NCBI GenBank assembly: GCA_965248695.1
Contig: CBDFKD010000002.1
Coordinates: forward strand, 2,688,001 to 2,752,000
DNA: 64,000 nt
DNA from: Acidobacteriota bacterium
GTDB lineage: Bacteria > Acidobacteriota > UBA890 > WLXD01
Reading direction: 5' to 3'
The notes under the pieces were generated by a model, which did not search any database, was not told the origin of the DNA, and worked only from the letters and a program-made list of their open reading frames with translations. The translations under genes were made by a program, and so were the position numbers. This document shows positions 35,552-64,000 of the stretch, piece by piece (the first letter of the stretch is position 1; every line of letters starts with the position of its first letter).

Positions 35552-36380
35552 TTAAACTCCGGCCCGGGTGTTGGGATTACGGAAGAAGAAACCGCCGGTC
35601 ACCTTCTTGCGTGCGTAATTCGTGTGGCCGTACAACTGCACGTTGTTGTCAAGCACGTGGCCGAAATTGCTCAAGAATTTGAAATCGTCGTCAATATCTG
35701 GAGAGCCCCAGATCTGCGCGGGGTCGGCAACGTGTGTATTGCCGCCTGCAATCAAGAGAGCAGCGTCGCTGCGCTGCACACTTCGACTCGTGGGGTCGGT
35801 GCTGCTGTACTCGATACTGAGGTTGGCGAAGCCGTTGTTGCCGAACGGCAAGCCGACGTTGCCGGAAATGGTATACGTGTAGCCGTCACCGGCGCTGAAG
35901 CTTCCGGTGCGGACCTCTAGGCTTCCACCGGAAGAGTCGTCCTTGAGCTGTAGGTTCAACACGCCGGCGATGGCGTCCGAGCCGTACTGCGCCGAGGCGC
36001 CGTCACGCAACACTTCCACCTGCCGCAACGCGATCGCCGGGATCGTCGAAACATCTGGCCCCTGTGCGCCATCGGCAACACCGTTACCCAACCAAGTGAT
36101 GACCGCCGCCCGGTGGCGGCCCTCCCGTTGACCACCACCAGCGTATGATCGGGCGCCAGACCACGCAAGTTCGCCGGACGAATGATCCGGGCCGCATCGC
36201 CGACCGGTTGAGGGTTGACATTGTATGACGGCAGGACGGTTCTTAACTGGTCGGCGATATCGGTACCGCCCTGACTCATCAGGTCAACGAATGAGATGAC
36301 GTCAATGGGCACAGCCGACTTGGTCACTGTCCGTGGCTGTGCGCGGGTGCCCACGACGACGATTACCTCATCTAAGGCCT
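35552..36380 (-). pseudogene. TonB-dependent receptor fragment (plug domain), frameshifted and truncated
   Basis: VVVGTR, PIDVIS, LRGLAPDHTLVVVNG, VEVLRDGASAQYGSDAIAGVLN split over two frames. Confidence 0.9.
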
Positions 36381-36384
36381 GGAG

Positions 36385-36960
36385 GTCCGGACAAAACGCC
36401 GGCAGCAAACGAGCCAGCCACGTGCGCTTGCTCGTGCCGGCGGCCGAGGGGCCCCAACGAGCGCTGGGCCATGGACTTCGTCGCCGATCGGCTCGAGAGC
36501 GGCCGGCAGTTCAGGGTGCTGACGGTGGTCGATCACTTTAGTCGTGAATGCCCGTTACTTGAGCCCGGCGCGTCGATCACCGGCAGGGCAGTAGCGCGGG
36601 CGCTGGAGCGCGTGTCGTTCAACCGGCCGCTACCGCGGGTGATCACGGTCGACAATGGCTCAGAGTTCTACTCGCAGGCGATGGACTCCTGGGCCTATCG
36701 GAGAGGCGTGCAGCTGCAGTTCATCCGGCCGGGAAAGCCCGTGGACAACGCGTTCATCGAGAGCTTCAACGGTCGGCTGCGCGACGAGTTCCTCAACGCC
36801 AATCTGTTCTTGTCAATCGAGGACGCTCGCAGTCTGGAGGCTCGATTACAATGCCCACTAGGCCCCACAGCTCACTGAACGATCGAACTCCTACGGGATT
36901 CGCCAGGGGCTGGCAACGGGAGGCCTCAGAACGCCGGATCCTAAAGCGCTGACTGGTACC
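36385..36960 (+). mobile_element. IS3-family orfB 3' fragment
   Basis: [37 protein letters not shown]; frameshifts; IRR missing. Confidence 0.88.
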
Positions 36961-37198
36961 GAAAACGGATCCGGATGTAATCTCACGATCTGGGTCAAGA
37001 ACGGGAGGTCAGAATGCCGAGTAAGAGGCACAGCGCCGAGCAGATCGTACGCAAGCTCCGGGAGGCTGAGGTGGAGCTGGCTCGAGGGGCGACGGTCAAG
37101 GATGCCTGCCGCAAGCTAGCAATCACCGAGCACACCTACTACCGGTGGCGGCGAGAGTACGGCGGACTGAAGCTCAACCAGGCCAGAAAGCTCAAGCG
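36958..37198 (+). mobile_element. IS3-family left fragment matching the element at 47482
   Basis: Sequence from CCGAAAACGGATCCGG through orfA MPSKRHSAEQ...ARKLK matches 47493-47731. Confidence 0.9.
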
Positions 37199-37454
37199 CC
37201 TGCGGATACTGGCCAAGAGCTTCGCGAAGACGGGCCGTGTGGCGCCCTCAAGGGGCCCACGGCTGCGCCCGGGCGCGCAATTGGTGCGCCAATGGCGAGG
37301 CGAAACCTACCTGGTCACCGTGACCGAGAGCGGCTTCGAGCATGCCGGTGAGCTGTATGGCTCCTTGAGCAGCATCGCCCGGCGCATCACCGGCGCCCAT
37401 TGCTCCGGCCCTCGCTTCTTCGGCATTCAGAAGGCCTCCAAACGCTCATCGTGA
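37014..37454 (+). CDS. Chimeric ORF: IS3 OrfA HTH fused in frame to a DUF2924-like C-terminus
   Basis: OrfA to ARKLK, then LRPGAQLVRQWRG...YGSLSSIARRITGAHCSGPRFFG. Confidence 0.8.
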   Translation: MPSKRHSAEQIVRKLREAEVELARGATVKDACRKLAITEHTYYRWRREYGGLKLNQARKLKRLRILAKSFAKTGRVAPSRGPRLRPGAQLVRQWRGETYLVTVTESGFEHAGELYGSLSSIARRITGAHCSGPRFFGIQKASKRSS

Positions 37455-38188
37455 ACGAAACGGCTCCTGCCTGCCGCAACGGCAACGGGCACCTGCGCTG
37501 CGGTATCTACACCCGCAAGTCCCACGAGCGAGGACTAGATCAAGCCTTCAACTCCCTGCACGCTCAACGTGAGGCCTGCGAGGCCTATATCGGAAGCCAC
37601 AAGCACGAAGGCTGGCGCTGCCTGCCGGACAGGTACGACGACGGTGGCGTCTCAGGCGCCACGATGGATCGGCCAGCGCTGCAGCGTCTGCTGGCCGATG
37701 TCCAAGGCGGCCGCATCGACCTGCTCGTGGTGTACAAGGTGGACCGGCTGAGCCGGGCCCTGTCGGATTTCGCCCGGATTGTAGAGATCCTCGAGCGGCA
37801 CGGGGTGTCGTTCGTGTCGGTGACCCAACAGTTCAACACCACCAGCTCGATGGGGCGCCTGACGCTCAACGTGCTGTTGTCGTTTGCCCAGTTTGAGCGT
37901 GAACTCACTGGGGAGCGCATCCGCGACAAGATCGCCGCCTCCAAGAAAAAGGGGCTGTGGATGGGCGGCCGCCCGCCCCTGGGCTACGACGTGCGGGACC
38001 GGAAGCTGGTTGTTAACAAAAAGGAGGCGGAAACCGTCCGCTATATCTTTCGCCAGTACCGTCAGCTCCGATCGGTGCGCGCTCTACGTACGCGGCTTGT
38101 AACCGCGGGCGTCACCAGCAAGCGCCGGGTGCTGCGTAACGGCACCCTCACCGGCGGCAAGCCGATCAACCGGGGAGCGCTGTACTAG
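37451..38188 (+). pseudogene. Large serine recombinase, C-terminally truncated
   Basis: CGIYTRKS, YDDGGVSG..MDRPALQRLL, YKVDRLSR, LSFAQFERE, GLWMGG.PPLGY; stops at ~245 aa. Confidence 0.88.
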
Positions 38189-40484: not shown

Positions 40485-42705
40485 GGTACTGTCAAGTTAA
40501 CAACGCGAGATCGGAGCCGGGCGAGCTGAGGGCCTGGAACCGGGGGGTTGCCCTAGGCGATGACTACCTCTGTCCAGGTCCCAAAGGCGCGAGCCCGAAG
40601 CAACCGGTGGTTCGCGGATCGTAGTCGGTGCCGGCTCAGGTTGAAGAGATTCCGGACACCACCGTGCACCGACAAGAACTGCTGCGCCTGAGCAGCGGAT
40701 TTGAACCTGCGCAGAGTTATTTGCAAATGTTGTGGATCGGTGGATTTGTTCAGGCGGCGTCTTCGCTAGCGATCAGGTGAACTCCATCGACGAATGTGGC
40801 GCCCTCGAGTACGAGGGCAGTGAGGTGAGGAGCGTTGATGCGGCGCCATCGTTGCTGTGCCATCTCCAGGAGCTTGAATGCCATCGTCAGCGCCTTGGTG
40901 CGTGAGCCGGCGCCCTTGGTGACGCGTTGTCTCAGGCGTACGGTGGCGAACGCCGACTCGATCGGGTTGGCCGTGCGCAGATGAACCCAGTGGTCGGCGG
41001 GGAAGTCGTAGAACGTCAGCAGCTTGTCGGAGTCGCGTTGCAACGACGCCACGGCCTTGGAGTACTTGGCGCCGTAGTCGGCTGCGAACCGCGCCATGCC
41101 CTCCTGAGCATCCTCGCGCGTTGGCGCACCGATGATCTCGTGCAGCGCGCGCTTGGCTTTGGCCTGCAGCCGCCTCGGTAGCTTGTCGAGCACGTTGCCA
41201 AGCCGATGCACCCAGCATCGTTGCTCTCGAGTCTGGGGCCATACATCCCGCACCGCCGCCCAGAACCCCAGCGCCCCATCACCCACTGCCACGAGCGGCG
41301 CCCGCATGCCTCGACGCTTCAGCTCCCGGAGCACGAACGCCCAGCTCTCGGTGCTCTCTCGATACCCGTCCTCGACCGCGATGAGCTCCTTGGTTCCGTC
41401 CGGCAAAACGCCCAGGATCACCAGCGTGCACAGCCGATCATCCTCGAGTCGAATGTTGAAGTGCACACCGTCCGCCCACACGTATACGTACTGCTTGGTG
41501 GACAGATCCAGCTTCCGGAATGCCTCGTACTCCGTGCTCCAGGCGTTCGTCAGCCGGCAGATCGCCGATGCCGACAGCCCGCTGGCTTCCTGTCCCAGTA
41601 AGATCGGCAGCGCCTCCTTGAAGTCGCCCGTCGACAGGCCCCGCAGGTACAGCACCGGCAGCACCTCCGCCACCTTCGGCGAGCGCCGCATGTAGGGCGG
41701 CAGGATCCGACTGCTGAACCGCTGCCTCAGTCCCTGCTCGTCGAGCCGCTTGTCGTTGACCCGTGGCGCGGCTACTTGCACCGTCCCGCACCCCAACGTG
41801 ATCTTGCGTGCGCGAGCCCGACCGTTGCGTACCACTTGCCGACGGCCGGCTTCATCCAGTTGCCCGGCGTGGCTCTGGATATACTCCTGAACCTCCCACT
41901 CCAGTGCTGTTGCCAGCATCTGCAGCGCGCCCTGCCGGGCGAGCTCATCGACGTCCAGTGTCAGCTGTCCTTCCTCCGCGTCCGATCCACCGATAATCTT
42001 GAGCACGGGTGGCGTCTCCTTCCCGGCCTCCACAGCCGGCTGCTGGTTGTTGATGATCCCAGCGAAGGTTACGCTGCCTTTCTTTTTCCTCCCATCCACA
42101 ACTTCCGGTTATATCTCACCTGCGCATCTGCCTCTCTCTTTGCCGGGTCGGCTGATGCGAGACCTCTGCTCGGTTGTTCGCGTAGCACGCTGTGACACGC
42201 TCCACGGAAGGCATCATACTCCTGTGCGCCGCCCCGTAGCTTCTAAGCTTGTCGGTGATCAACCATCGAGGTTCGCTCCCCTGCCCCTTCAACAGCTTGC
42301 GAAAGAAACGCTTGGCAGCGTAGGCGTTGCGACGTCGTTGGACCAAGATGTCGATTACGTCGCCCGTCTTGATCGACTGCACGCCACAGATAGTGGCGTT
42401 CCCCGCGTATCGTGACGAACACCTCGTCCAGAAACCACGTGTCACCCAGCCGGCCGTGCCGACGCCGTAGCCTAGCCGCATACTTGGGCCCGAACTTGAC
42501 GCACCAGCACCGGATTGCCTCGTGCGAGACCGTCACACCTCGCTTCGCCAAGAGATCCTCGACGTCGCGAAAGCTCAAGCTGAACCGGTGATATAGCCAC
42601 ACGGCGTGGCTGATGATCCCTGGCGGAAAGCGATGTCGATGGTAGCGCTGCCGATCGTTGCTCATCACCGGACTGTGCCAGGCTGCCGGTTAACTTGACA
42701 GTACC
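40485..42705 (-). mobile_element. IS6-family element interrupted by IS256
   Basis: IRs GGTACTGTCAAGTTAA (40485-40500) / TTAACTTGACAGTACC (42690-42705); HRFPPGIISHAVWLY, LDEVFV, YLWRAVD, ITDKL, NNRAE; frameshift near 42362. Confidence 0.92.
40714..42117 (-). mobile_element. IS256-family element, copy 2, with 9-bp target duplication
   Basis: Same length and transposase as copy 1; ACCTGCGCA at 40705-40713 and 42118-42126. Confidence 0.96.
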
Positions 42706-44663: not shown

Positions 44664-45790
44664 TGACCTGCCCCCCAAAGCTGGACACATCAAAACGAGA
44701 AAATCTCGGGGTATGAGTGCTCATCCTTCGGCAACCTGTTGGAGCTGTTGGACATACACAGCCGGAGCTAGATATCCCAAGGAAGAATGCGGTCTCGTTT
44801 CGTTGTACTCCCGGCGCCACCCCTCCAGCTGTTCCTGGGCCTCAGAGAGGCTCAGGAACCAGCTCTGGCTCAGACACTCGTCCCTGAGTTTGCCGTTGAA
44901 GCTCTCGATCCATGCATTCTCCACCGGCTTGCCCGGCCGGATGAACTCTAGCTGCACGCCGTGGCGGTACGCCCACGAGTCCATCGCCTGGGAGTAGAAC
45001 TCCGAGCCGTTGTCGACGGTGATGATCCTCGGTAGCGACCGCTGCAGCGAGAGCCGCTCGAGCACCTGCGCGACCCGCTGCCCGGTCATTGACACCCCGG
45101 CCTCCAGCACGGGGCACTCGTGGCTGAAGTGGTCCACGACCGTCAGCACCCGGAAGTAGCGGCCACTGTCCAGTCGGTCCGTGATGAAGTCCATGCTCCA
45201 GCGCTCGTTCGGCGCACTGGCGGCCGGCAGCGATACCCGCGTGTGGCTCGCCCGCTTGCGGCGGCGTTTCACCCGGATCGACAGCTCCTCCTGCCGATAC
45301 AGTCGGTAGATGCGCTTGTGGTTCACCTGCCAGCCTTCTCGTCTCAACATCACCCACAATCGTCGGTATCCGAACCGCGGTCTCGCCGCCGCGAGCTCTC
45401 GGAGCCGCTTCCGGAGCACTGGATCATCCTGCTTGCGGCTCTGGTACCGATGGCTCGAACGTCCGAACCGGATCAGCCTGCACGCTCGCCTCTCGCTGAT
45501 CTCGAATGCCTCTCTGAGGCATCTCACGAGCCGGCGTTTGCGTACAGCTGCCGCAGCTCTGCCACGCCCATGCCGGCGAACTTCCGCCGCCACGCGTAGA
45601 ACGTCTGCGGCGCCACCCCCATCTTCCGGCAGATCTCCCGCACCGGCGTCCCCGCCTCCGCCTGCCTCAGCGCGTACGCGATCTGCTCGTCCGTGTACCT
45701 CTTCTTCTTCATCCGTCCTCCCGGTTCGAGGACTACGGTACACGCCGATGTGTCAACCTCCACCCGGACCAGTTTTCGGGGTTTGGGTCA
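44664..45790 (-). mobile_element. IS3-family element with a deletion at the orfA/orfB junction
   Basis: Ends TGACCTGCCCCCC / GGGTTTGGGTCA; orfA MKKKRYTDEQIAYALRQ lacks its leucine-zipper tail; orfB DDE motifs present. Confidence 0.9.
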
Positions 45791-47481: not shown

Positions 47482-50112
47482 TGACCTGACCCCCGAAAAC
47501 GGATCCGGATGTAATCTCACGATCTGGGTCAAGAACGGGAGGTCAGAATGCCGAGTAAGAGGCACAGCGCCGAGCAGATCGTACGCAAGCTCCGGGAGGC
47601 TGAGGTGGAGCTGGCTCGAGGGGCGACGGTCAAGGATGCCTGCCGCAAGCTAGCAATCACCGAGCACACCTACTACCGGTGGCGGCGAGAGTACGGCGGA
47701 CTGAAGCTCAACCAGGCCAGAAAGCTCAAGCAACTGGAGAAGGAGAATGCCCGGCTCAAGAGGCTGGTGGCGGAAAAGGAACTCGACCTGTCGATCCTGA
47801 AGGAAGTGGCGGAGGGAAACTTCTGAGCCCAGCTCGGCGGCGAGAGGCGGTGGCACATGTACGGGGGCGGCTGGGCGTCTCGGAGAGGCGGGCGTGTCGG
47901 GTACTGAAACAACCACGCACGACACACCGGTACGTGCCAAGAGAGCCGCAACAGGAGCAGATTTTGACGGAGCGGATCGTGGATTTAGCCCGACAGTACG
48001 GGCGCTACGGATATCGGAGGGTGACAGCGTTGCTGCGCATGGAGGGCTGGTCCGTGAACCACAAACGAGTGCAGCGTATCTGGCGGCGCGAAGGGCTGAA
48101 AGTACCGAGAAAACAGCCCAAACGAGCACGGCTGTGGCTGAGCGATGGCTCCTGCATCCGGCTGCGCCCACAGCACCGGGATCATGTCTGGGCGTATGAC
48201 TTCCTGCACCACCGGACGCACGACGGTCGGGCTATGAGGCTGCTGACGATCGTCGATGAGTACACACGAGAAAGCCTGGCGATCCATGTAGCGGATGTGC
48301 CCCGAATGTCGTGGAAATTGGATGAGCGTCTCCTCCGCGACGACGGATGATCCTATCGGTTAGGCGGCCTGTTTGTCGGGGCCGCACGTGAGCTGAGCCA
48401 AGAACCGGTGGCCATCGATGCGTCGCATGCGGATCTGGCCGAAGGCGACCAGGCTCCACAGCAACGTCACCCCAGCGGCCTCGGTCGAGAACGAGCCCTG
48501 CGTCTTGGTACGACGACGGAACTCCCGGTTCAGGTTCTCGAGGGCGTTGGTGGTGCGCAGCGTCTTCCACATCGGCTTCGGGAACTGGTAGAAAGTCAGC
48601 AGGTTCAAGCCGGCCTCCTGCAGGCTCCGGGCCACGGCGGGCACGAGGGTCGACCACTTGCGTACGAAGGCGGCGTAGGCGGCTCTGGCCTGGTTGCCGT
48701 CATCGGCCCGGACGATCGCATCCCAGTCCCGCTTCATCTCCGCACGTGCATGAACCGGGCAGTGGTCGCGTAAGTTGCTCCACTTGTGTTGTGTGCACCG
48801 CTGCACCGACACATCGGGCCATACCTCGATCGCCTTGGCCAGGCCCTTGTGGCCGTCGGCGATCAGCACCTCCGGCGCCTGCAGCCCTCGTCTCACCAGC
48901 GACTCGATCAGTCCTTGCCAGTGCACCGCTGCCTCCGAGACCGCCAACTGCAACGCTACCAACACCTTCTGGCCGTCGGGCTGGACCCCGAGCACCGCCA
49001 GTACCGGCGCCGACACGACCCGCCTCGCCAGCCTGACCTTCAGATGGAACCCGTCCAAATACAGGATCCAGTACCGCTCGCCTGACACATCTCGCTGTCT
49101 CCAGCGCTCGAAGTACGCCTTCAGGCGCCCCACCACCCTGGAGATCGTGCTCTTGGTCAGGTGCGCCTTGCCCAGCAGCGGAGAGAGCGCCTTGCGGATC
49201 CGCCGGGTGTTGGCTCCCGCCAGGTATGCTCCCAGGATCGCCTCGTCCACCTGCCGGGCTCGCCGTGCGTACCGTGGCAGGATCGCGCTGCGGAACTCTC
49301 GGGTGCTGCCGTCTTGCCCCACGATGCGCCCCCGCGGTATGTCCAGCTCCTGGAGCCCTTGGGCTGTCGTCACCCGACGCCTTTGGCTGCCGTTGCGGTA
49401 GCCTCGCCGCTGCCCGTTGCGCTCGTATCGGTCGCAACCCAGCGCCTCGGTGAGCTCCTCGTCAAGCGTCATCTGGATCGCCTCGCGGATCCTGGTGCGC
49501 AACAGCGCCTGTACGTCCTGCCGGAACTCGACGAGCCCGGTTCCCTCCGTGCTAACCTGCTTCACGGCGTAGCCTCCTGCCGCTCGTGGCGGCTTTGTGT
49601 TTTTCCTACTCGGAGGTTACGCCATCTTTATTTCCACAGGACTCGGGCCGGATCCCATGTAGCACGGAAGCTCAACTCTGAGGACGTGCTGGAGCAGCTC
49701 GGGAGGTTGTTCGTACACCGGGGCATACCTGAGCACATCCGGTCGGATAACGGACCAGAGTTCACCGCCGAGGCGGTTCGCGACTGGCTGGGCCGGTTGG
49801 GCGTGGGGACGCTGTTCATCGAGCCGGGCTCGCCGTGGGAGAACGGTTACGTGGAGAGCTTCAACGGCAAGCTACGCGACGAGCTGCTGGATGGAGAGAT
49901 CTTCTACACGCTCAAGGAGGCAAAGGTTCTGATCGAGAGATGGCGTCAGCACTACAACCGCATGCGACCGCACAGCTCGCTGAGCTATCGGCCGCCCGCA
50001 CCCGAAGCGACGTTGTTGAAGCCGGCTGCGCTCCGCTTCGCCGGCCTCAACAACCTCTTGTCAGCACCGAGTTACTGAGATAAGACATGGTACTAACCGC
50101 GGGGTCAGGTCA
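47482..50112 (+). mobile_element. Complete IS3-family element interrupted by a second IS256 type
   Basis: IRL TGACCTGACCCCCG, IRR CGCGGGGTCAGGTCA; orfA 47548-47826; orfB resumes at 49656. Confidence 0.93.
48293..49655 (-). mobile_element. IS256-family element, second type, with 8-bp target duplication
   Basis: Transposase 48360-49565 (YRNG, LYLDG, QRCTQH, RTTNALENLNREFRRR); CATGTAGC at 48285-48292 and 49656-49663. Confidence 0.95.
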
Positions 50113-55094: not shown

Positions 55095-55526
55095 ATGAGA
55101 GCGGCGCTCACGCTTCTGAGCCTGGCCATCTTCGGGGTGGCACTGGTATCGGCCGCCGGGGCGATGCTGACGCAGGAGTCCGCCCTGGGGCCCGTGCCCA
55201 GCGACTACGGCATCGTGCTGCACTCCCTGGGCGGCAAGTTCGTCGTCATCGCGGCAGCCGTGGTGTTCCTCATGATGCTCGACGCGATCTTTATGCCGTA
55301 CCTGAGAATCGAGGATGCGTTCTATTGCCGTGAGCCGTGGTCGAGCATGCCGCCCGAGGTACGAGGGGCGTTCATCTGGGGCTGGTTCACCGTCTTTGCC
55401 GCGATCATCCTCGGGTTCGCCTGGGGTGGGTCGTGGTGGACGCTGGGTCTGGAGTCGCAGAAATCGGGGAATATCATTACTTGCCCTCTCGCAGCCGGCG
55501 GCCCTACTGGCCATCTTCGCTGTTGA
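55095..55526 (+). CDS. Three-TM membrane protein, holin candidate
   Basis: Three hydrophobic segments directly before the transglycosylase. Confidence 0.55.
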   Translation: MRAALTLLSLAIFGVALVSAAGAMLTQESALGPVPSDYGIVLHSLGGKFVVIAAAVVFLMMLDAIFMPYLRIEDAFYCREPWSSMPPEVRGAFIWGWFTVFAAIILGFAWGGSWWTLGLESQKSGNIITCPLAAGGPTGHLRC

Positions 55527-55986
55527 GGTACAGCTGGCCGACGTGCGGGAGTGGTCCGATCGGCTTGCTGCACAGATCCAAGTGGAGTCGGCCTGGCGAC
55601 CCGAGGCGCGCTCGAAGTATGCGGCAGGGCTAGCCCAGTTCACCCCGGCGACGTGGAGCGACATCGCCCCGTACACCGAGCCGTCATGTGCCGGCGCCCC
55701 CGAGACCGACCCGGCCTGCTCCGTACGGTCCCAGATCGTGTACATGCGCCGGCTGCTATCCCGCTACCGATTCTCCGCCACCGAGGCGGAGCAGTGGGCC
55801 TTCGCCTGGGCTGCCTACAACGGCGGGCCGGGGTGGATCAGTCGCGAGAAGACACGCTGCAAGAGACAGCCCGGTTGCTCGCCCGGCCGCTGGTTCGGCC
55901 ATGTGGAGCGGCACTGCCTTCGGGCCAACTGGGCGTGCCGGGAAAACCGCGCTTACCCGCGCAAGATCCTCGCACGGCTGCCGTGA
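55426..55986 (+). CDS. Lytic transglycosylase (SLT) endolysin
   Basis: AAQIQVESAW, AAGLAQFTPAT, AAYNGGPGWI, ENRAYPRKI; start uncertain. Confidence 0.88.
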   Translation: MGRGGRWVWSRRNRGISLLALSQPAALLAIFAVEVQLADVREWSDRLAAQIQVESAWRPEARSKYAAGLAQFTPATWSDIAPYTEPSCAGAPETDPACSVRSQIVYMRRLLSRYRFSATEAEQWAFAWAAYNGGPGWISREKTRCKRQPGCSPGRWFGHVERHCLRANWACRENRAYPRKILARLP

Positions 55987-56060
55987 GGGTTAGGCTTCGA
56001 GCGGCGCCGACCGGATAAGTTCTTGTCCCTCAATCACTTACGTGCCCCTTCGAAGCAAGC

Positions 56061-56753
56061 ATGAGACTCCGCACCGCCATCCCGATCATCGCGCTGGCAG
56101 CCCTTGCGGGCTTCGGCGTCGGATGGTGGCACTTCGCACCCTCGCTGCTGTCGCCTGAGGGGCTGCTGGGGCTGGCCTCGGGCCTACTGGAGCAGCAGCG
56201 CCGCGAGTCGCTGGCCGAGTACGAGGCAATGCAGGCGGAGCACGAGGAGCAGATCGCCGCCTATGAGGCCCACCTTTCCGCCACTGAAGAAGCGCTCGGC
56301 CAACTCAGTCTCCGGCTCGCCGAGCGCAATGCAGAGGCGGTCGAGGCGGAGCAGGCCCTCGGGCGCACTCTCCAGCTGGCGGCACAGCGCGAGGCGCAGC
56401 TACGCGACGAGATCTTGGAGGCCGCTCCCGAGGTCGAGGCACCTTTAGAGGAGCTACAGGTACAGCACCGCGGCGTGGTGAAGGGGTTCGAGCTACGGGT
56501 CAAGGCGCTGCAGCAGAGCGTTGAGACCCGCGACCAGCTGATCGTGAACCTGGGGGAACAGCTCGACGCCACTCGCCAGCTATACGAGACAACGCAAGCG
56601 CGGCTCGACCTGGCGGAGGCGCGGCGTAAGAGCCTCGAAGGCCGGCGCGTGCGGATCGCTTGGCCTGCCGTGCTGATCGGCGGGATACGCGACTTGAGCG
56701 GCACAGATGGTTGGAGGGCTGGTGTCGCCGTCGGGATCGCGATTACCTGGTAG
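56061..56753 (+). CDS. Membrane-anchored coiled-coil protein (spanin-like position)
   Basis: N-terminal TM, long heptad region, short C-terminal beta segment; follows the lysin. Confidence 0.55.
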   Translation: MRLRTAIPIIALAALAGFGVGWWHFAPSLLSPEGLLGLASGLLEQQRRESLAEYEAMQAEHEEQIAAYEAHLSATEEALGQLSLRLAERNAEAVEAEQALGRTLQLAAQREAQLRDEILEAAPEVEAPLEELQVQHRGVVKGFELRVKALQQSVETRDQLIVNLGEQLDATRQLYETTQARLDLAEARRKSLEGRRVRIAWPAVLIGGIRDLSGTDGWRAGVAVGIAITW

Positions 56754-57366: not shown

Positions 57367-57813
57367 TCACATAAGCCCCCGGTCCCGCAGCGACACCCAC
57401 TGCCCGCCATCGGGGCCGGTGCCGATGATGATGTGGTCCAGGACACGGATATCGATGAGCTCGCCCGCCTCCATCAGCCGGCGAGTGGTCGACACATCCG
57501 CCTGGGACGGCGTGATGTCGCCGGACGGATGGTTGTGAGCGAGGATGATCGCTGCAGCGCCCGCGTACAGGGCGGCGGTCAGGATCTCCCGAGGGGCCGC
57601 TGCCGCCTGGTCGAACCCGCCCTCCGAGACGACCTCGTAGCCGATCGGCTGGAGCTTCGTGTTCAGCCAGAGCGCCACCAAGCGTTCCTTCGCGGTCTGC
57701 TGCGGAATGGCTTCGACGGCGAACGCGGCCGCGATTGCAGGATCGGTCATCGGCCCTGACATCGGCGCGACCGCATCGCTGGCGAACACTAGCTGAAACC
57801 TCTTGATCTCCAT
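57367..57813 (-). CDS. RadC-like JAB domain protein
   Basis: KERLVALWLN, PREI, IILAHNHPSGDITPSQAD, VLDHIIIG. Confidence 0.92.
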   Translation of the reverse strand: MEIKRFQLVFASDAVAPMSGPMTDPAIAAAFAVEAIPQQTAKERLVALWLNTKLQPIGYEVVSEGGFDQAAAAPREILTAALYAGAAAIILAHNHPSGDITPSQADVSTTRRLMEAGELIDIRVLDHIIIGTGPDGGQWVSLRDRGLM

Positions 57814-57948
57814 CGACTGTCTCCAACTTTCCGTGTCTTCTATAATGTATTCACTATACCGACGTATAATAAATAGTCAAGCTAGAAATGGTGGATTCTC
57901 AAGAAAACAGGCGCGCATACCGCTGCCCTTACGAGCGGCGGGGTCAGG

Positions 57949-58179
57949 TCAGGACAGGCCGGACTCGAGCAACGCGCCGGCTCCTGCCGCCGTTGTGATG
58001 CCGTTCGGGGCGCAGCCTGGTGCCAATCCGGCAGGCCTACCCAGCAGAGCTTTGAGTTCCACCAACGACACGTCTGACGTGTCTGCAGTTTCTGTGGGCT
58101 TCCCCTTGGGCGTTGACGCCACGGCAGGGATCGCCGCCACCGCCATCACCACGGTGAGCGCGAGAATCCGTCTTAGCAT
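57949..58179 (-). CDS. Small secreted hypothetical protein (array cargo)
   Basis: GGAGG RBS; signal peptide MLRRILALTVVMAVAAIPAVA. Confidence 0.55.
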   Translation of the reverse strand: MLRRILALTVVMAVAAIPAVASTPKGKPTETADTSDVSLVELKALLGRPAGLAPGCAPNGITTAAGAGALLESGLS

Positions 58180-58198
58180 GAAATTCCTCCCGGTTCAT

Positions 58199-58400
58199 CG
58201 GTCCAGGTGGGGTTGTGGGCACGTACGCTCTTCATCGTCTGAACGTTCATGGGCTGTTCCCTCCTCACGGCAGCGACCTTGCCATCCACCTCACCTCGCC
58301 CACGAGCACCGCATCGTCAGGCCAGGGCTCAGCGGTCCAGGTGGGGTTATCGCTGACCAGCAGCCAGTCACGCCTGCCTTTGGCGGCGCGCTTCGCGTTC
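58199..58400 (-). repeat. Orphan S24 repressor 3' end plus the start of the zinc-ribbon gene and an extra ~17-bp DNPTWT-coding copy
   Basis: Encodes KRAAKGRRDWLLVSDNPTWTAEPWPDDAVLVGEVRWMARSLP*; 58215-58320 nearly identical to 60556-60662. Confidence 0.9.
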
Positions 58401-58670
58401 ATGCTGCCGCTGCCGTGAGACCAGAACGTATCCAAGCGCGGTGTTGAAAGCTACGAGGAACCCGACGCCGGCACTAAACAAATTGCCGTTGGGTGCGAGC
58501 AGTTGTGCAATGGCTATCGTGGTGCAGGCAAGAAACAAGGACCCATGAAGTACGCGGAGCCAGTATGGATTCCGCGCGAGCCACTGGAACGAGCTGGTCG
58601 CCAGGTACAAAGCTGCGGGCAAAAGCACCGCGAAGCTCATCAATATTGCGACTGCGAACCAGTCGTTCAT
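58368..58670 (-). CDS. Three-TM membrane protein (array cargo)
   Basis: 100-aa hydrophobic ORF whose end runs into the S24 fragment. Confidence 0.6.
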   Translation of the reverse strand: MNDWFAVAILMSFAVLLPAALYLATSSFQWLARNPYWLRVLHGSLFLACTTIAIAQLLAPNGNLFSAGVGFLVAFNTALGYVLVSRQRQHEREARRQRQA

Positions 58671-58738
58671 TCGGTATCGGCTGGCAAAGTTAGTCGCTGC
58701 GCCCTGGCCGCAGGTGCGCAGTTCGTTTCTCTCCCTAG

Positions 58739-59233
58739 CTATTCCCGATCATCGCCTACCGTAGCTTGGGGGGAGGAAGGTGCATCCACAGCCGCTTCAG
58801 TGGCTGGCGGTTCCTTGAGCGGCGTTTCGACTGAGATCGGCTTTGTCTGCGGTGCACCACCCTCATTCCGGCGCATCAGCACCAGCAGGACAACACCGAT
58901 CAAGATCAGCGCGGGTACATCGCCGATAAGGTTGGCCGACTCCGCAGGGTCGTTGAGTGCCTGCCAGGCCATCAGTAGTCCATGTGCCAAGCTTGACCAC
59001 GCGGCAAAAGCGATCAGGCTGGTGTGCTCGGTCGGGTTTCGCGACGCCCTAAGCAAGAATACGCCCAGCACCGCGAATGTAAGGAGGATCATCTGTTCGT
59101 ACTCGGCCTGGCGAGGCTCCCACATGAACCCTGCCGGCCAAACGACCGTGAGCGGATACAGCCCGACGATAAAGATAACTCCGACGACCGTGAGTACTAT
59201 GCTCAATGTTGATCGCTGACTGCCGATAGCCAT
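58739..59233 (-). CDS. Four-TM membrane protein, DUF6632-like (array cargo)
   Basis: WPAGFMW...YEQMI...LGVFLL.ASRNP.EH.SLI.F..WSS..HG..MA...GDVPAL. Confidence 0.7.
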   Translation of the reverse strand: MAIGSQRSTLSIVLTVVGVIFIVGLYPLTVVWPAGFMWEPRQAEYEQMILLTFAVLGVFLLRASRNPTEHTSLIAFAAWSSLAHGLLMAWQALNDPAESANLIGDVPALILIGVVLLVLMRRNEGGAPQTKPISVETPLKEPPATEAAVDAPSSPQATVGDDRE

Positions 59234-59409
59234 CTCTCTGCCTCCATTGCTGCTAGCTACTAGCCGATACAGAACAGGATCCGATAGTTGCCAACTCGTA
59301 GTTGCCGATACGTACTGCTGGTCAACTGGTGTTGTTGTCGAGTCTGTAGCCTCCCTATTCGTTCACCGATCCTCGGGGTGAGGTCAGCCAGTAGAGTGTA
59401 GAGTCTCCT

Positions 59410-60159
59410 CTAGCCGCCCGATCTCCCTTCAGGACCTCGACGCGGTCGCTCTCGACGCAGCAGCTTGAGCAGGTACCGATCGGGTTCTTCGACCTCGTTC
59501 AGGTGCCGGCGCGCTTTCCTTGCGAAGCGTTCAGCATCCTCATTGGTCCACTGTCGATTTGCCCCGCGCCCGTGTCGATTCGCCTCTCCGCGCCAGATGG
59601 TCAGCGCCGCGTAGCCCCAGAGACCAGCGATTGCAGAGCGAACCTCATCCACGAAAATGACGTCTGGATTCTGCTCCAAGAATCTCTCAAACCGACAAGC
59701 TTCGTCGATGAGCACTCGCACGGGCTTTCCGTCGCTTTCGATGTACTCCCCCTCCCAGACCAGCCTCTTCCACCTAAACCACGGAACGTGCTTGCCGTCA
59801 GGGAACTCCTCCAGGTACCCATCAATGAGTCGAAGATGGGGCGTGCGGTCCTTCCAGCCATGAACGAGCCCCTGGACATCTAGCGCCTTCTTGTAGGCGT
59901 CTTCCCGGTCCGAGATGGCCTCCACGGTCGCTATGGCCTCGGAATTCTCCGCTGCCATTAGCTGCACCGTTTCTGCTGACATCGGCCACGGGTTGGCCAG
60001 AAGGTCAGCCGTCAGGCGCTTCATTTCCTCCACGCTCCTCGCAAGAGCATCCTCACCGGCGGGTGGTGCCTGGGCGGGCGCGAGCATGGCTGCGAGGACC
60101 AGGCAGATCGACACTGCCCGAACGGGCGTGGTGGACAACAGCTCTCGTAGGTTTGCCAT
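59410..60159 (-). CDS. Secreted helical hypothetical protein (array cargo)
   Basis: GAGGA RBS; signal-peptide-like N-terminus; YLEEFPDGKH and FLEQNPD helical repeats. Confidence 0.65.
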   Translation of the reverse strand: MANLRELLSTTPVRAVSICLVLAAMLAPAQAPPAGEDALARSVEEMKRLTADLLANPWPMSAETVQLMAAENSEAIATVEAISDREDAYKKALDVQGLVHGWKDRTPHLRLIDGYLEEFPDGKHVPWFRWKRLVWEGEYIESDGKPVRVLIDEACRFERFLEQNPDVIFVDEVRSAIAGLWGYAALTIWRGEANRHGRGANRQWTNEDAERFARKARRHLNEVEEPDRYLLKLLRRERPRRGPEGRSGG

Positions 60160-60190
60160 TACATCCTCGCTGCTAGATAGCGGGCCCTTT

Positions 60191-60350
60191 CTCACGGCAG
60201 CGTCCTCGCCATCCACCTCACCTCGCCCACTAGCACCGCATCGTCAGGCCAGGGCTGCTCGTTGGTCCAGGTGGGGTTGTCGCTGACCAGCAGCCAGGTG
60301 TGGTTGGGGCCCTTGGCGGCGCGCTTCACGACCAAGCTCTCGTCTTTGAG
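60191..60350 (-). repeat. Orphan S24 repressor 3' end
   Basis: Encodes LVVKRAAKGPNHTWLLVSDNPTWTNEQPWPDDAVLVGEVRWMARTLP*; homologous to 58264-58394. Confidence 0.9.
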
Positions 60351-60592
60351 CTTACGCGGGGCCATCTCTTTGCGATCCGGTGTCGGGCCTTCTGACCGCC
60401 GACATAACTCTCGACGTAGCCGCAAGCGACGCAGACGTAGTTGTCCAGCGCAACGCTCCCAAAGTACAGCCCACCGATTGGGATGGTGTTCGAGCCCATA
60501 GTCCCGGTCTTGCTAAAGACGTTCGCGCCACTGTGCACCTCTTCGGAACCGCAACGTGGGCACGTACCGCTCTTCATCGTCTGAACGTTCAT
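60326..60592 (-). CDS. Small zinc-ribbon protein (array cargo)
   Basis: GGAGGG RBS; CPRCGS...YVCVACGYVESY. Confidence 0.75.
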   Translation of the reverse strand: MNVQTMKSGTCPRCGSEEVHSGANVFSKTGTMGSNTIPIGGLYFGSVALDNYVCVACGYVESYVGGQKARHRIAKRWPRVSSKTRAWS

Positions 60593-60606
60593 GGGCTGTT
60601 CCCTCC

Positions 60607-60663
60607 TCACGGCAGCGACCTTGCCATCCACCTCACCTCGCCCACGAGCACGGCGTCGTCGGG
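60607..60663 (-). repeat. Short orphan S24 repressor 3' end
   Basis: Encodes PDDAVLVGEVRWMARSLP*, about 19 bp downstream of the cI stop. Confidence 0.88.
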
Positions 60664-60681
60664 CGAAGGGATTGGGTGGGC

Positions 60682-61536
60682 TCACAGCAGTATCTTCCCC
60701 GTCCAAGCGACCTGCCCGAGGATCTTGGCTTCCCGTGGCAGGCCTAGGGTCGGGTACTCGGACTTGTCCGGGTTGTCACTGGCGAGCGCCCAGGCTCCCT
60801 GATCGTTCCGCATCAGCCGCTTGACGACGCTGCCGTCCTCGGTCCACACGGCGAAGATGCGGTCATGGATCAGAGTGGTGCGCCGATGATCGACCAGGAT
60901 CATCGCTCCGTCCTCGATGCCCGGCACCATCGACTCACCCCATACCTCGAAGGCGTTGCAGTGCTCGGGAAACAGCCCGTGCCGGTTCGACCACACCGTC
61001 GGGAAGGCGATGTAGCCGGTGACCTTCTCGGTGATGAAGGCTCCCGCGCCAGCGGCAATGCCAACGTCGCCGCGTCTCGGGAAGACGCTGAAGTCGTGCT
61101 CGAAGGTGGCCAGACGGGGGTTGCCAGCGTAGTCCTCAGGGAGAGGGATGGGGGCGACGTTGCCGTCCGAGAGGTCGTCGGCGGGCGGCGGCAGGCGCGA
61201 GAGGATGTCGGCGTACTGCGCGTGCAGTTCCTCGCGTAGCGCTTCGGTCTTGGCTCGCAGCGCCGCCAGCTCGTCGCGGCTCGGTTCGTCGCTGGCGTCA
61301 CTATCGCGCGCCTCCAGCTGCGGCTCGGAGCCGTTGCGCGGCGGGCCGACGTAGAACTCCAGGCCCAGGGCGTCGCAGAGGGCCTGAATAGTCGATCCAC
61401 GGAGATCCAGTCCACGTTTCAAGCTCCGGACGGCGCTTTCGTGCCCCACTGCCGCGATAGATACCTCCCTGGCAGAACGGTTGCTTCGCTCCAGGGCTGC
61501 CAGGATTTCAGCGGGGTACTTAGCCGAGTAGGTCAT
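60682..61536 (-). CDS. CI-like phage repressor (HTH plus S24 peptidase)
   Basis: N-terminal HTH; IAAGAG cleavage site; VWGESMVP (Ser); VVKRL (Lys); SDNP. Confidence 0.92.
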   Translation of the reverse strand: MTYSAKYPAEILAALERSNRSAREVSIAAVGHESAVRSLKRGLDLRGSTIQALCDALGLEFYVGPPRNGSEPQLEARDSDASDEPSRDELAALRAKTEALREELHAQYADILSRLPPPADDLSDGNVAPIPLPEDYAGNPRLATFEHDFSVFPRRGDVGIAAGAGAFITEKVTGYIAFPTVWSNRHGLFPEHCNAFEVWGESMVPGIEDGAMILVDHRRTTLIHDRIFAVWTEDGSVVKRLMRNDQGAWALASDNPDKSEYPTLGLPREAKILGQVAWTGKILL

Positions 61537-61613
61537 ACGGTCCCTACCTATACCACTAATTTTTGCATCGGGCTTCACTCGACTTCGGGGTTTTATGCCC
61601 TATTCTCTGGGGC

Positions 61614-61868
61614 ATGAACTCCCTAGAAGCGAATCTCGTTGCACTCGCCGAAACCTACGCCTCGCACCGAAGTGTGACCTTGTGGAGGGTCGGTCACCAG
61701 GCAGCGAACCGTGGGTCGTTCTTCGTCGATCTGAAAGGCCAGAAGCGCCACTGCCAGACCAATACGTATAGCCGCGTTCTCCAGTGGTTCTCAGACCACT
61801 GGCCGGCCGACCTGGAATGGCCGGCGGAGATCCAGCGCCCGGAGCCGCGGCAGGGAGAGGCGGCGTGA
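61614..61868 (+). CDS. Cro-like protein
   Basis: Divergent from cI across 77 bp; TLWRVG...GSFF..L...YSRVLQWFSDHWPADLEWP. Confidence 0.75.
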   Translation: MNSLEANLVALAETYASHRSVTLWRVGHQAANRGSFFVDLKGQKRHCQTNTYSRVLQWFSDHWPADLEWPAEIQRPEPRQGEAA

Positions 61869-62012
61869 GCGGTGCGCGGCTTCGCGATCGTCGTTTGCTC
61901 GCAGTTTTCGGCCGATGGGTCTGGAGAGCGATCTGCTGGAAGCGCCGTCTTCACGGTCGCGTCGAGCGAGCACTCGGGATCTACGAACTACGGCGCTCTC
62001 GGCGCGACACCC

Positions 62013-62587: not shown

Positions 62588-63266
62588 CTAGTCGACCTCG
62601 CCGGCGGCGGCAGCGCGCTGTTCGTGCGCCAGCTTGACTCGCTCCGGCAGCGTGAAGGTGTAGAGCAAAAACAGCTCGGCGAAGCTCTGAATCTGCTTCG
62701 CGCTCATTTCGTCGAACGTTTCCTCGTGCGCCGCTTTGTTTCCCTGGAGGCGAATGATGTGCGCCAAAGACTTCATTGCCGGAGTGATCTCGTGCCGTTT
62801 GGCGAGGGCGTCGATACGTTTCACGAGCTGCATCTTTTTGAAGTCCGCACCTTCAGGCGGCGATCTCCGTGGTGGCCCACTCCAGAACCTTGCGGAACAT
62901 TATGCCGGCGCTTGTGAAGTGCTGGCGACGCAGGTTGTCGGCCGCCTCCTTGTAGTCGTTCGCGATGCCATCGGGCACATGCTCGGGCACGTCGATTGGC
63001 TGCGGCTTCGGGTGTATGGCAATCAGTTCGAACTCATGGTCTTGCGGATCTCCTGAATAATTGCCTGGACTACTTTCCTTCGGGCCCTTGAACTTAACGG
63101 CGACACCTTCTTGACACTTACGGCATACGAACAAGGTGTTCCACTCCCTCAGGCGACGATTCGATTGCTCCTCCAGCGAGACAGGTGGGCACTCGAGCTG
63201 ACCGCCGAACATGAACCCCGTGCGCTCCGATGCACAGTGGGGGCAGTCTAGGACCATTTCAGGCAT
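62588..63266 (-). pseudogene. DUF4145 domain protein with N-terminal zinc ribbon and a single frameshift near 62858
   Basis: CPHC...CRKC, VPEHVPDGIANDYKEA, AGIMFRKVLE / LVKRIDAL, IRLQGNKAAH, FLLYTFTLP. Confidence 0.85.
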
Positions 63267-63480
63267 GTCGAACCTCTCACCGCATATCAGGGAGCTGAAT
63301 AAAACGCTGGCCCCGGAGTACGGCCCGGAGACACCGAGCGAGGCCGTGAGCCGGCTGCTCGAACACTACCAGCGGCTCGATGAGCAGGGCCAGCTCGCGT
63401 TCGTGGCGGCGCTGATTGGTGACGCCGTGACGCAGCGAATGATCGCGCGCCCGGAGCCGCGGCAGGGAGAGGCGGCATGA
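63265..63480 (+). CDS. Small phage hypothetical protein
   Basis: MSNLSPHIRELN...RPEPRQGEAA*. Confidence 0.5.
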   Translation: MSNLSPHIRELNKTLAPEYGPETPSEAVSRLLEHYQRLDEQGQLAFVAALIGDAVTQRMIARPEPRQGEAA

Positions 63481-63641
63481 GCGACACCGCCCAGGTCGAC
63501 GTATCCGTGCATTCCGAACCGCTGCTTACTGCGCTGTCACGGCTTACCGAGCTTGCGAAAGGCTTTCCGGAGCTTGTCGATCGCCTTATCGACCTTACGC
63601 ATCTCTCGCCGGAGTTGCTCGGCACGGTAGTGCGTGACGAG

Positions 63642-64000
63642 TGCGTATTTCGGTGATGCCGAATCGGTTGTTTCGGTCATCGCGATCACTCGTTTCGGGT
63701 GATCGCGATCAGGGCATCGGAGCGAAGCGACGTTGTGTTGGGATGTTAGCGGATCACCTTGGGTGAGTCAGAAGTAGTAGTAGAGGCGGTGGAGGCTGTG
63801 GGGGACGCGAAGCGTCCTCCAAGGAGCGGTGGGAAACGGATGTTTTCCATGGCTCCGGCAGGATCCACAGGTTGCCGGAGCAGCGCGAGGATGCTCATGT
63901 GGCTTTGTCCGCATCGCGCAGCTTGGCGGCGGCGGCCGCCTTGCGCAGCGACCGGCCGGTGAGCTTGATCTTGTAGGCAGCGTGGATGAGCCGGTCGCAG
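63642..64000 (-). mobile_element. istB: IS21-family element, right end with istB C-terminus, running off the window
   Basis: Terminus TGCGTATTTCGGTGATGCCGAATC with internal TTTCGG...GATC repeats; minus strand CDRLIHAAYKIKLTGRSLRK...* (stop 63895-63897). Confidence 0.88.

Follow-up and report, generated by a model that had tools for sequence, protein, structure and literature searches.

Why should the 3′ end of one phage repressor gene recur among the small genes that follow a different repressor? The question is raised by a 64,000-nucleotide (nt) stretch of an Acidobacteriota genome (assembly GCA_965248695.1, contig CBDFKD010000002.1, positions 2,688,001 to 2,752,000; hereafter the window). 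Here, a resident cI-like repressor with an S24 peptidase domain is followed by five small cargo genes, all oriented as cI, among which lie orphan tails of a foreign repressor, numbered T1 to T4 from the cI side (Table 1). A first reading of the DNA, the original prediction, had reported repeated orphan repressor tails and a fourth piece of ~17 bp; all of them are present on the minus strand, displaced by no more than a few bases from the positions first given, and the orphan tails are real. We consider it probable that the tails are scars left in the accessory slot of a Mu-like element, where related prophages repeatedly exchanged DNA at gene-end homologies and where an immunity swap came last. 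The first reading had overlooked this Mu-like identity and a second gene-end repeat across cI.

T1 lies directly 3′ of the cI stop codon, and the gene after it takes its Shine-Dalgarno sequence from this tail; in both T1 and T3 the GAGGAGGG Shine-Dalgarno overlaps the tail stop codon. T3 carries, as had been noticed, the Shine-Dalgarno and the first 12 codons of the Zn-ribbon gene, and this truncated copy joins T4 directly at ...CCCAC. Immediately after T4 comes the Shine-Dalgarno of the gene for the 76-amino-acid (aa) protein. The Zn-ribbon gene and the 100-aa gene extend 8–12 codons into T2 and T3, respectively, in another frame, and stop there: the Zn-ribbon stop codon is inside T2, and the last ~12 codons and stop of the 100-aa gene are inside T3. 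The direct tail repeats flank cargo at start-to-start spacings of 415 and 1927–1930 nt, and two cargo genes have no tail upstream, again in agreement with the first description. T1 happens to share the cI reading frame right after the TGA, and read-through would add 24 residues that end with the foreign tail (60607–60681); the shared frame is most likely a coincidence.

Comparison of the array with the whole window by blastn aligned the T1 unit (60556–60664) with the T3 unit (58215–58322) at 96.3% identity over 109 nt (E = 2e-45), T2 with T3 (60191–60338 and 58264–58405) at 83.8% over 148 nt (E = 2e-39), and T1 with T2 (60606–60664 and 60191–60249) at 89.8% over 59 nt (E = 1e-16), and gave no further tail copies in the 64 kb. 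T4 is 91% identical to T3 and 83% to T2 in a repeat-family search, and over the 102-nt repeat unit T1 and T2 are 95% and 73% identical to T3. The T1 and T3 units share an uninterrupted exact match of up to 84 nt (60568–60651 and 58226–58309); in random 200 × 200-nt pairs from the same region (~300 comparisons), the longest match averaged 7.9 and never exceeded 18. The tails retain their frame, as originally proposed, with no internal stops and with two 3-nt indels between T2 and T3. They are also distinct from the tail of the resident cI, to which they show ~30% amino acid identity and a longest exact nucleotide match of 8.

Judged by homology, the tails are C-termini of S24-family repressors, carried as gene fragments. 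A HMMER search with T2 against 1.84 billion representative proteins (E ≤ 1e-3) returned 183 proteins, the long ones (200–330 aa) matching via their extreme C-terminus. In the family alignment, the tails cover the stretch between the conserved (G)LVVKR motif, where the Ser-Lys dyad has its lysine, and the stop codon. They represent the last 8–49 residues only, without the catalytic serine and without a credible start, and a Pfam scan of the T2 and T3 open reading frames (ORFs) gave no match and no complete S24 domain. The T2 and T3 proteins are identical at 30 of 31 conserved-core residues; in T3, NAKR replaces the conserved VVKR. An extension of T1 upstream to NPT codons was rejected since it rests on an out-of-frame 6-of-7-nt match.

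Stranded 3′ ends of this repressor family occur elsewhere too. We aligned 145 HMMER matches to a full-length reference; 48 of these are shorter than 150 aa, and 20 of the 48 were scanned against Pfam. In three of the 20, an unrelated N-terminal domain is joined to the tail: an HTH_21 fragment of an IS3 insertion sequence (IS) in P0010, a Macro domain fragment in P0011, and a 27-residue helix-turn-helix (HTH) in P0116. Four others contain S24 only and 13 gave nothing; many of the short matches are likely gene-calling or contig-edge effects. The best match to T2 among the matches listed, P0008 (61 aa, 89%), is another orphan tail; some of its conserved residues are damaged, and it also has the 'TDEPW' variant of T4. 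Many short matches start at reference residues 240–255, and ten of them start at or beside the SMEP Met (nine at the Met, one four residues upstream at GESMEP). We do not rely on a breakpoint shared by orphan tails database-wide because the query covers residues 248–293 only, gene callers start at internal Met or Val, and the short-match survey had no control family.

The differences between the tails are mostly synonymous. In the 31-codon core, T2 and T3 differ with nonsynonymous (dN) and synonymous (dS) divergences of 0.014 and 0.147; over all 46 aligned codons dN/dS is higher (0.123/0.213) owing to two loop segments that differ. For the last 20 codons, dN and dS are 0.046 and 0.553 between T1 and T2 and 0.023 and 0.325 between T1 and T3, and six of the eight sites that vary among the three tails fall at third positions (binomial P 0.02), in what is a small sample. 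The tails thus appear to have diverged under purifying selection (dN/dS about 0.1 in the core), which favors alleles in use rather than decaying local copies. Since the substitutions are largely silent and the indels in frame, the tails would descend from separate working repressor alleles, contributed by different donors.

The 84-nt perfect repeat spans the last 14 tail codons and stop, the Shine-Dalgarno spacer, and the Zn-ribbon start. The 3′ 45 nt of T1 lie within this repeat, and its 5′ 18 nt hold all five mismatches to T3; by our own arithmetic, the chance that five evenly spread mismatches all fall in 18 of 102 nt is (18/102)^5, about 2e-4. T2 matches T3 in this 18-nt stretch, which suggests a third allele as the source of the 5′ part of T1. 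Together, the 84-nt identity and the clustered mismatches point to homologous exchange or conversion within the tails. The original proposal that recombination built the array from blocks of a repressor tail plus a downstream gene is thereby strengthened, both by the signature of purifying selection and by a sharp mosaic breakpoint in one tail. The repeat would also be a substrate for deleting the 2,342 bp between its copies. The irregular junctions, in which T1 abuts the cI stop, the Zn-ribbon and 100-aa genes run into tails, and T4 is cut on both sides, seem less consistent with a site-specific mechanism than with illegitimate joins that later suffered deletions. A repeat search revealed no inverted repeats within the tails, and no integrase domain was detected in the ORFs at 56.8–63.7 kb. 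The array had been called integrase-free, and indeed it contains neither an integrase nor an attC-like site, the pair that marks an integron.

The resident repressor matches Pfam Peptidase_S24 (8.6e-18, above cut-off) and the PHROG family of transcriptional repressors phrog_4 (6.7e-24). Its GESM and VVKR align with the family motifs, providing the Ser-Lys dyad, and its AAGAGA stretch, a candidate Ala-Gly self-cleavage site, aligns with the family AAAGGGA; for an N-terminal DNA-binding domain, no HTH model passed E 0.01 in Pfam. It belongs to the same broad family (29–36% identity) and has an N-terminal LGLEFYVGPPR motif in common with two family members. Its tail is complete, aligned to the family end, and different from the orphan tails. 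In a tblastn search, it matches the CI-like repressors of phages RC1 and RS1.

The divergent neighbor of cI, p101, matches phrog_7669 (7.7e-28) and has homologs in 13 phage records, representing eight distinct phages by organism name, with Rhodobacterales and Rhizobiales hosts. All five Mu-like phages that we examined (RS1, RC1, vB_ThpS-P1, vB_RhkS_P1, and vB_PeaS-P1) carry the p101 homolog in divergent orientation beside a CI/Cro-type repressor. The pair lies near one record end in RS1, RC1, and vB_RhkS_P1, and a Mu-type transposase follows 1–3 kb further on in the relatives. Comparison of the RS1 genome with the window by tblastx (≥42 bits) recovered the repressor and p101, as well as two further matches between the right end of RS1 (39.9–40.2 kb) and the IS-rich 45–48 kb of the window. 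By these similarities, the locus is recognizable as the immunity region of an RS1/RC1-type Mu-like prophage, whole or remnant, with the repressor transcribed leftward and the early operon rightward. In those phages, zero or one annotated ORF (a YbjQ_1-family ORF in RS1) lies in the slot downstream of the repressor, before the genome end; here, that slot contains five genes. Because its content varies among the relatives, this is an accessory-gene slot, unusually full in the present case. The cargo looks foreign in composition, with a GC content of 58–61%, compared with 65–67% nearby, and a GC content at third codon positions of 0.67–0.72, compared with 0.80 for the repressor and 0.85 for RadC.

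A gene-end repeat also exists on the other side of cI, where the end of p101 recurs 1.57 kb further on. The two copies (61829–61871 and 63441–63483) are 43 nt long and 93% identical, tblastn gives cross-matches, and copy 2 overlaps the start (ATGA) of the next early gene, which encodes 59 aa. On the minus strand, the insert between them contains a 180-aa ORF and a split DUF4145 gene; on the plus strand, it includes most of an 89-aa ORF, all but the fused gene end. The DUF4145 gene (phrog_1305, 'DNA binding protein') is divided between two adjacent minus-strand ORFs, 62588–62833 for the C-terminal and 62853–63266 for the N-terminal half, and is probably a pseudogene. Phage vB_RhkS_P1 has an opposite-strand gene in the corresponding slot. 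Leftovers on both outer sides would be expected if recombination had replaced an old repressor/early-gene module by a new one; it is just as likely that something inserted independently at the p101 boundary. Beyond the repeat, at 63660–64000, the plus-strand operon seems to stop after the 59-aa gene, and a minus-strand ORF enters from beyond the window, so the early region may be interrupted. This ORF has no Pfam match, and a suspected identity as an IS21 helper protein was dropped for that reason.

The cargo itself consists of little-known families. The original description of five genes stood, except that the supposed four-TM protein, the DUF6632 protein, has two segments above a crude hydropathy threshold; the start of the 249-aa gene is also corrected, to 60159. 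The Zn-ribbon family comprises eight proteins including that of the window, the other seven at 49–57% identity; two of these carry the source annotation 'predicted nucleic-acid-binding Zn-ribbon protein', and the family is conserved through ...WPRV, just before the T2 junction. Matches of the Zn-ribbon protein to Pfam Zn_ribbon_13 and Lar and of the 100-aa protein to DUF7549 are weak and below cut-off, and the 249-aa and 76-aa proteins have no Pfam, PHROG, NCBIfam, or PADLOC match. Searches of PDB sequences with the 249-aa protein and the Zn-ribbon family gave chance-level matches only. For the role in defense or superinfection exclusion first suggested for the cargo, PADLOC returned no match for the five proteins, and neither PHROGs nor NCBIfam returned any. 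The 249-aa protein has a hydrophobic segment at residues 8–26 and just two homologs in the search, at 100% and 58% identity (61% for the latter in the alignment). The first of these, P0006, is encoded on an 18-kb contig of another assembly; it is identical over the aligned part and ~20 residues longer. We read the extension as a 1-nt indel at the stop codon in the window (59410–59425), so that a close sibling locus would exist.

Four of the five cargo products have hydrophobic N-termini or membrane segments, features typical of prophage exclusion and conversion proteins. A Shine-Dalgarno-like motif precedes four of the five cargo genes, as judged by eye. A crude consensus scan of the array detected no internal promoters, nor a gene with a promoter and terminator of its own, and a single weak terminator-like site, inside the Zn-ribbon gene. 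Read-through of the cargo from the repressor promoter is plausible on this basis. Rfam gave no matches in 56.5–64 kb, and beyond the 76-aa gene the predicted folding is not more stable than that of shuffled sequences (z +0.67), unlike a terminator. Just beyond the array, an AT-rich patch on the minus strand (57853–57880) contains TTGACT-16-TATAGT, a 10/12 sigma-70-like match and the only strong one that the consensus scan found in 56.7–62 kb. Downstream of it lies a RadC-like JAB gene (57367–57813), which marks the end of the cI-side transcription unit.

The arrangement could have arisen as follows. The slot downstream of the repressor would have been filled several times by related elements carrying repressor allele T, each block bringing the 3′ end of repressor T, a stop-overlapping ribosome-binding site, and the donor's following gene or genes. 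Older blocks would have been pushed outward and then partly deleted, which would explain the truncated Zn-ribbon copy and the 23-nt T4. In the last or near-last event, a heteroimmune repressor, possibly with its divergent early gene, would have been inserted, stranding T1 after the new stop. The tails would be untranslated pseudogene fragments. Their recent origin would account for their persistence, as would the use of their last ~15 nt as the Shine-Dalgarno of the gene that follows, and, being direct repeats, they could serve as substrates for more homologous deletion or exchange. The cargo, one Zn-ribbon and four envelope-directed proteins, would probably be expressed by read-through in the lysogen and may have lysogenic-conversion or exclusion-type functions. 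What the sequence shows is the repeats, their S24 origin, the signature of selection, the mosaic breakpoint, and the synteny with Mu-like phages; the succession of events, the swap of immunity, transcription together with cI, and what the cargo does are inferred. For a function of the tails themselves, there is no evidence. So understood, the locus is a case of phage mosaicism, or moron accretion, with visible scars; it is not a new machine, and a neat example rather than a new principle.

Several observations weigh against this account. An intact donor was not found: no full-length repressor more than 66% identical to T2 is among 150 listed HMMER matches, and a word-based search gave only two longer proteins, both at 57% identity. 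None of six related loci contains a second copy of its own repressor tail, and the expectation that other prophages would show repeated cI tails thus failed among these six. T2 and T3 begin within ~10–15 nt of each other, near VVKR, which is unexpected for independent illegitimate joins and is the only regularity that passive scarring would not predict. The 84-nt identity may equally reflect a recent local duplication or gene conversion. The Mu-like identity draws on two genes only, and the window ends 2.1 kb after p101, before the expected transposase and the phage ends. Finally, as regards co-transcription, a GC-rich hairpin (z −1.7) lies between the DUF6632 and 100-aa genes.

Wider searches for similar arrays were negative within their scope. 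A scan of genome contigs with T2 gave at least 593 stretches; among the matches listed, three encode a relative (58% identity), in two metagenome-assembled genomes (MAGs), and neither MAG has an array. Searches of phages and plasmids with the tail (tblastn), of plasmids with the array (blastn), and of phages with the DUF6632 and Zn-ribbon proteins (tblastn) gave nothing. The literature searches, which were not aimed at that exact pattern, turned up no description of a cargo array interspersed with repeated 3′ ends of a repressor. One MAG chromosome, OX639990.1, contains the same 5′-truncated S24 repressor ORF (119 aa) twice (L001 and L002); the neighbors of L001 appear transposase-like by eye.

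The most serious competitor to serial exchange, although we think it unlikely, is an active integrase-free cassette system comparable to integrons or to the mini-circles formed at PeSLs, in which tails and other gene-end linkers act as homology anchors, recombination between two tails loops out a circle with one tail and its cargo, and a single crossover by RecA or a phage annealing protein inserts the circle into a tail in another related prophage, so that cassettes would be gained, duplicated, and lost. Cargo blocks between direct tail repeats are what such a system would produce, and the plus-strand insert likewise lies between 43-nt direct repeats. T1 and T3 both precede a Zn-ribbon start, with the same 3′ 84 nt and different 5′ parts, as crossover hybrids would, and the near-shared 5′ boundary of T2 and T3 fits inheritance from one founding event. 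A precedent is available in T4-type phages, which form mini-circles between repeated regulatory motifs (PMC2839356). However, one such locus is known, and the six relatives lack repeats. T4 and T1 are irregular stubs, the junction before the 76-aa gene lies in the middle of a tail rather than at its end, and two cargo genes are tail-less. Moreover, the T2 and T4 segments, expected to derive from the same circle, are only 83% identical, and neither a circle nor a population variant was observed. We would likewise give only a small chance to the more general idea that, in this lineage of Mu-like prophages, gene ends (the last codons of the repressor or the first early gene), with the ribosome-binding site of the following gene, are portable homology anchors by which host or phage homologous recombination captures, stacks, duplicates, and sheds cassettes with no integrase, probably via circles. 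If it were true, past immunity swaps could be read from the array.

Less probable still is a purely local origin, in which a tail/Zn-ribbon unit underwent segmental duplication and then indels and drift, without exchange between phages. It would explain why a tail with a Zn-ribbon start occurs twice with 84 nt of perfect identity, and why both copies have another tail fragment downstream (T2 and T4). Yet the predominantly synonymous differences and in-frame indels are unlike neutral decay, T2 is far more diverged from T3 than T1 is over the 102-nt unit (73% compared with 95% identity), and the two copies are separated by cargo that has no sequence relation to them and a lower GC content.

The original prediction had also suggested that the tails are spare C-termini for the resident cI, and this we regard as very improbable. 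In its fuller form, the tails would be a reserve of alternative C-termini or dominant-negative peptides, and recombination with cI or read-through of the TGA would alter dimerization or inducibility. The position of T1, in the cI frame right after the TGA, and the open tail frames are compatible with it, and orphan 3′ fragments of Rhs genes are known to be activated by recombination with the main gene (PMC3967940). Nevertheless, an exact match of at most 8 nt between resident and orphan tails leaves little for recombination; the orphan proteins are near-identical and offer no choice; T1 and T4 are stubs, no orphan has the catalytic serine, and T3 has NAKR; the resident tail is already complete, and being in frame is a 1-in-3 chance. 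An assembly artefact, with related prophages collapsed or misjoined in a genome rich in repeats and IS elements, is the least credible explanation, as the repeats are short (≤148 nt), diverged (73–96%), and well within read length, the Zn-ribbon protein of the window is recorded on a 5,761,898-nt contig, and the independent 18-kb contig encodes the product of the 249-aa gene, identical over the aligned part.

Serial exchange in a Mu-like slot has parallels in several known systems. Mu-like accessory slots, or regions of genomic plasticity (RGPs), as in Rhodovulum phage RS1, with its ORF between the left end and the repressor, and in the Pseudomonas phages treated in PMC4378225, share the position downstream of a leftward repressor, the divergent partner, variable content, and lower GC of the insert. 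They differ in that they hold zero or one gene, whereas five are stacked here, and the borders here are marked by the 3′ ends of another allele. PMC4378225, a pangenome study of Pseudomonas Mu-like phages, describes repressors and Ner-like genes as highly variable and reports no common recombinase target at RGP borders and no recognizable sequence at the slot borders.

A moron, in the sense of Juhala and Hendrix, is a gene of deviant composition, with its own promoter and terminator, that is added between two conserved genes and that relatives lack. The cargo genes are likewise extra genes between conserved ones, absent in relatives, and of deviant composition. In phage lambda, rexAB and similar genes are co-transcribed with cI; the cargo resembles them as accessory genes downstream of a repressor and has no sequence relation to them. 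Both the moron definition and rexAB-type genes appear in PMC4378225.

The orphan modules of Rhs and CdiA (PMC3967940) are similar in that a full-length gene is followed by tandem homologous 3′ fragments, each with the donor's following gene; those fragments have no translation starts and 'resemble displaced fragments'. They differ in their diverse toxin tips and in a homology to the main gene that allows activation. In contrast, the fragments here are near-identical and not recombinable with the resident gene, and the downstream genes are not their partners; neither diverse tips nor homology to the main gene were found. PeSLs of T4-type phages resemble the tails as short gene-border repeats in plastic regions that shuffle small ORFs of unknown function and can release mini-circles upon recombination of neighboring repeats. 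According to PMC2839356, however, these are promoter-plus-terminator motifs in virulent phages, whereas the repeats described here are coding 3′ ends with ribosome-binding sites in a temperate Mu-like element, and the scan indicated no promoter or terminator activity. A further parallel is phage mosaicism that arises when defective prophages recombine by relaxed homologous or illegitimate means (PMC3945230), where exchange between related temperate elements also takes place at short, diverged homologies, with a sharp breakpoint inside a tail in the present case. That process usually leads to replacement; here, genes are stacked and the old ends are retained.

Table 1. Features of the repressor locus (positions within the window)
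Feature	Position	Strand	Remark
Resident cI-like repressor, S24 peptidase domain	60682..61578	-	likely start ATG at 61536, giving 284 aa
Tail 1 (T1), orphan last ~20 codons of foreign repressor	60607..60669	-	PSPDDAVLVGEVRWMARSLP, then stop
Zn-ribbon gene, 88 aa, intact	60326..60592	-	
Tail 2 (T2), ~49-codon orphan	60192..60344	-	ESLVVKR...VRWMARTLP, then stop
249-aa protein, signal-like N-terminus, no known family	59410..60159	-	
DUF6632 membrane protein, 164 aa	58739..59233	-	Pfam PF20337 1.6e-31 and hydrophobic segments
100-aa protein, three hydrophobic segments	58368..58670	-	
Tail 3 (T3), ~46-codon orphan	58265..58405	-	SMNAKR...VRWMARSLP, then stop
Copy of Zn-ribbon Shine-Dalgarno and first 12 codons	58215..58264	-	ends abruptly ...CCCAC
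Tail 4 (T4), 23-nt internal tail fragment	58192..58214	-	NPTWTDEP, truncated on both sides
76-aa protein, N-terminal hydrophobic signal-like segment	57949..58179	-	
p101, first early gene, divergent from cI	61563..61868	+	likely start ATG at 61614
Gene-end repeat copy 1	61829..61871	+	last 10 p101 codons (RPEPRQGEAA, then stop) and overlapping start codon
1.57-kb insert between gene-end repeats	61872..63440		
Gene-end repeat copy 2	63441..63483	+	in-frame fusion to unrelated 89-aa ORF

Other parts of the window contain features of separate interest. On the plus strand, 55095–56753 encodes a membrane protein, an SLT-domain protein (phrog_669 endolysin, 1.2e-27), and a protein with a hydrophobic N-terminus and weak coiled-coil-type matches (SMC, DUF641), and converges on the RadC operon. 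The trio is possibly of lysis type; it may belong to another element, because tblastx revealed no similarity to RS1. The 26–50 kb region is IS-rich and lower in GC. It includes two minus-strand 449-aa Mutator-family transposase ORFs with identical Pfam scores (26175–27524 and 40750–42099), with a third Mutator-type and three IS3-type (rve) ORFs nearby (48360–49565, 28733–29590, 36333–36878, and 44721–45743). Among these IS elements, 37014–38188 on the plus strand contains a DUF2924/HTH_Tnp_1 ORF followed by a serine recombinase (Resolvase 1.9e-38). An uninterrupted minus-strand ORF of 2696 aa (8133–16223) combines ETF-QO 4Fe-4S, acyl-CoA dehydrogenase (N, M, and C), ETF, and ETF-alpha domains. 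It could represent a giant fusion of an entire electron-transfer chain or, alternatively, several genes read as one in GC-rich DNA.

How temperate phages gain accessory genes at fixed slots is largely unknown, and at this locus the borders are still legible. The leftovers on both sides of the immunity genes, together with the crossover point in T1, point to exchange at gene-end homologies between heteroimmune relatives. The 84-nt perfect repeats predict a measurable instability, by deletion or by formation of circles. Should the pattern prove recurrent, the order of immunity swaps and cargo gains in prophages could be reconstructed from leftovers of this kind.

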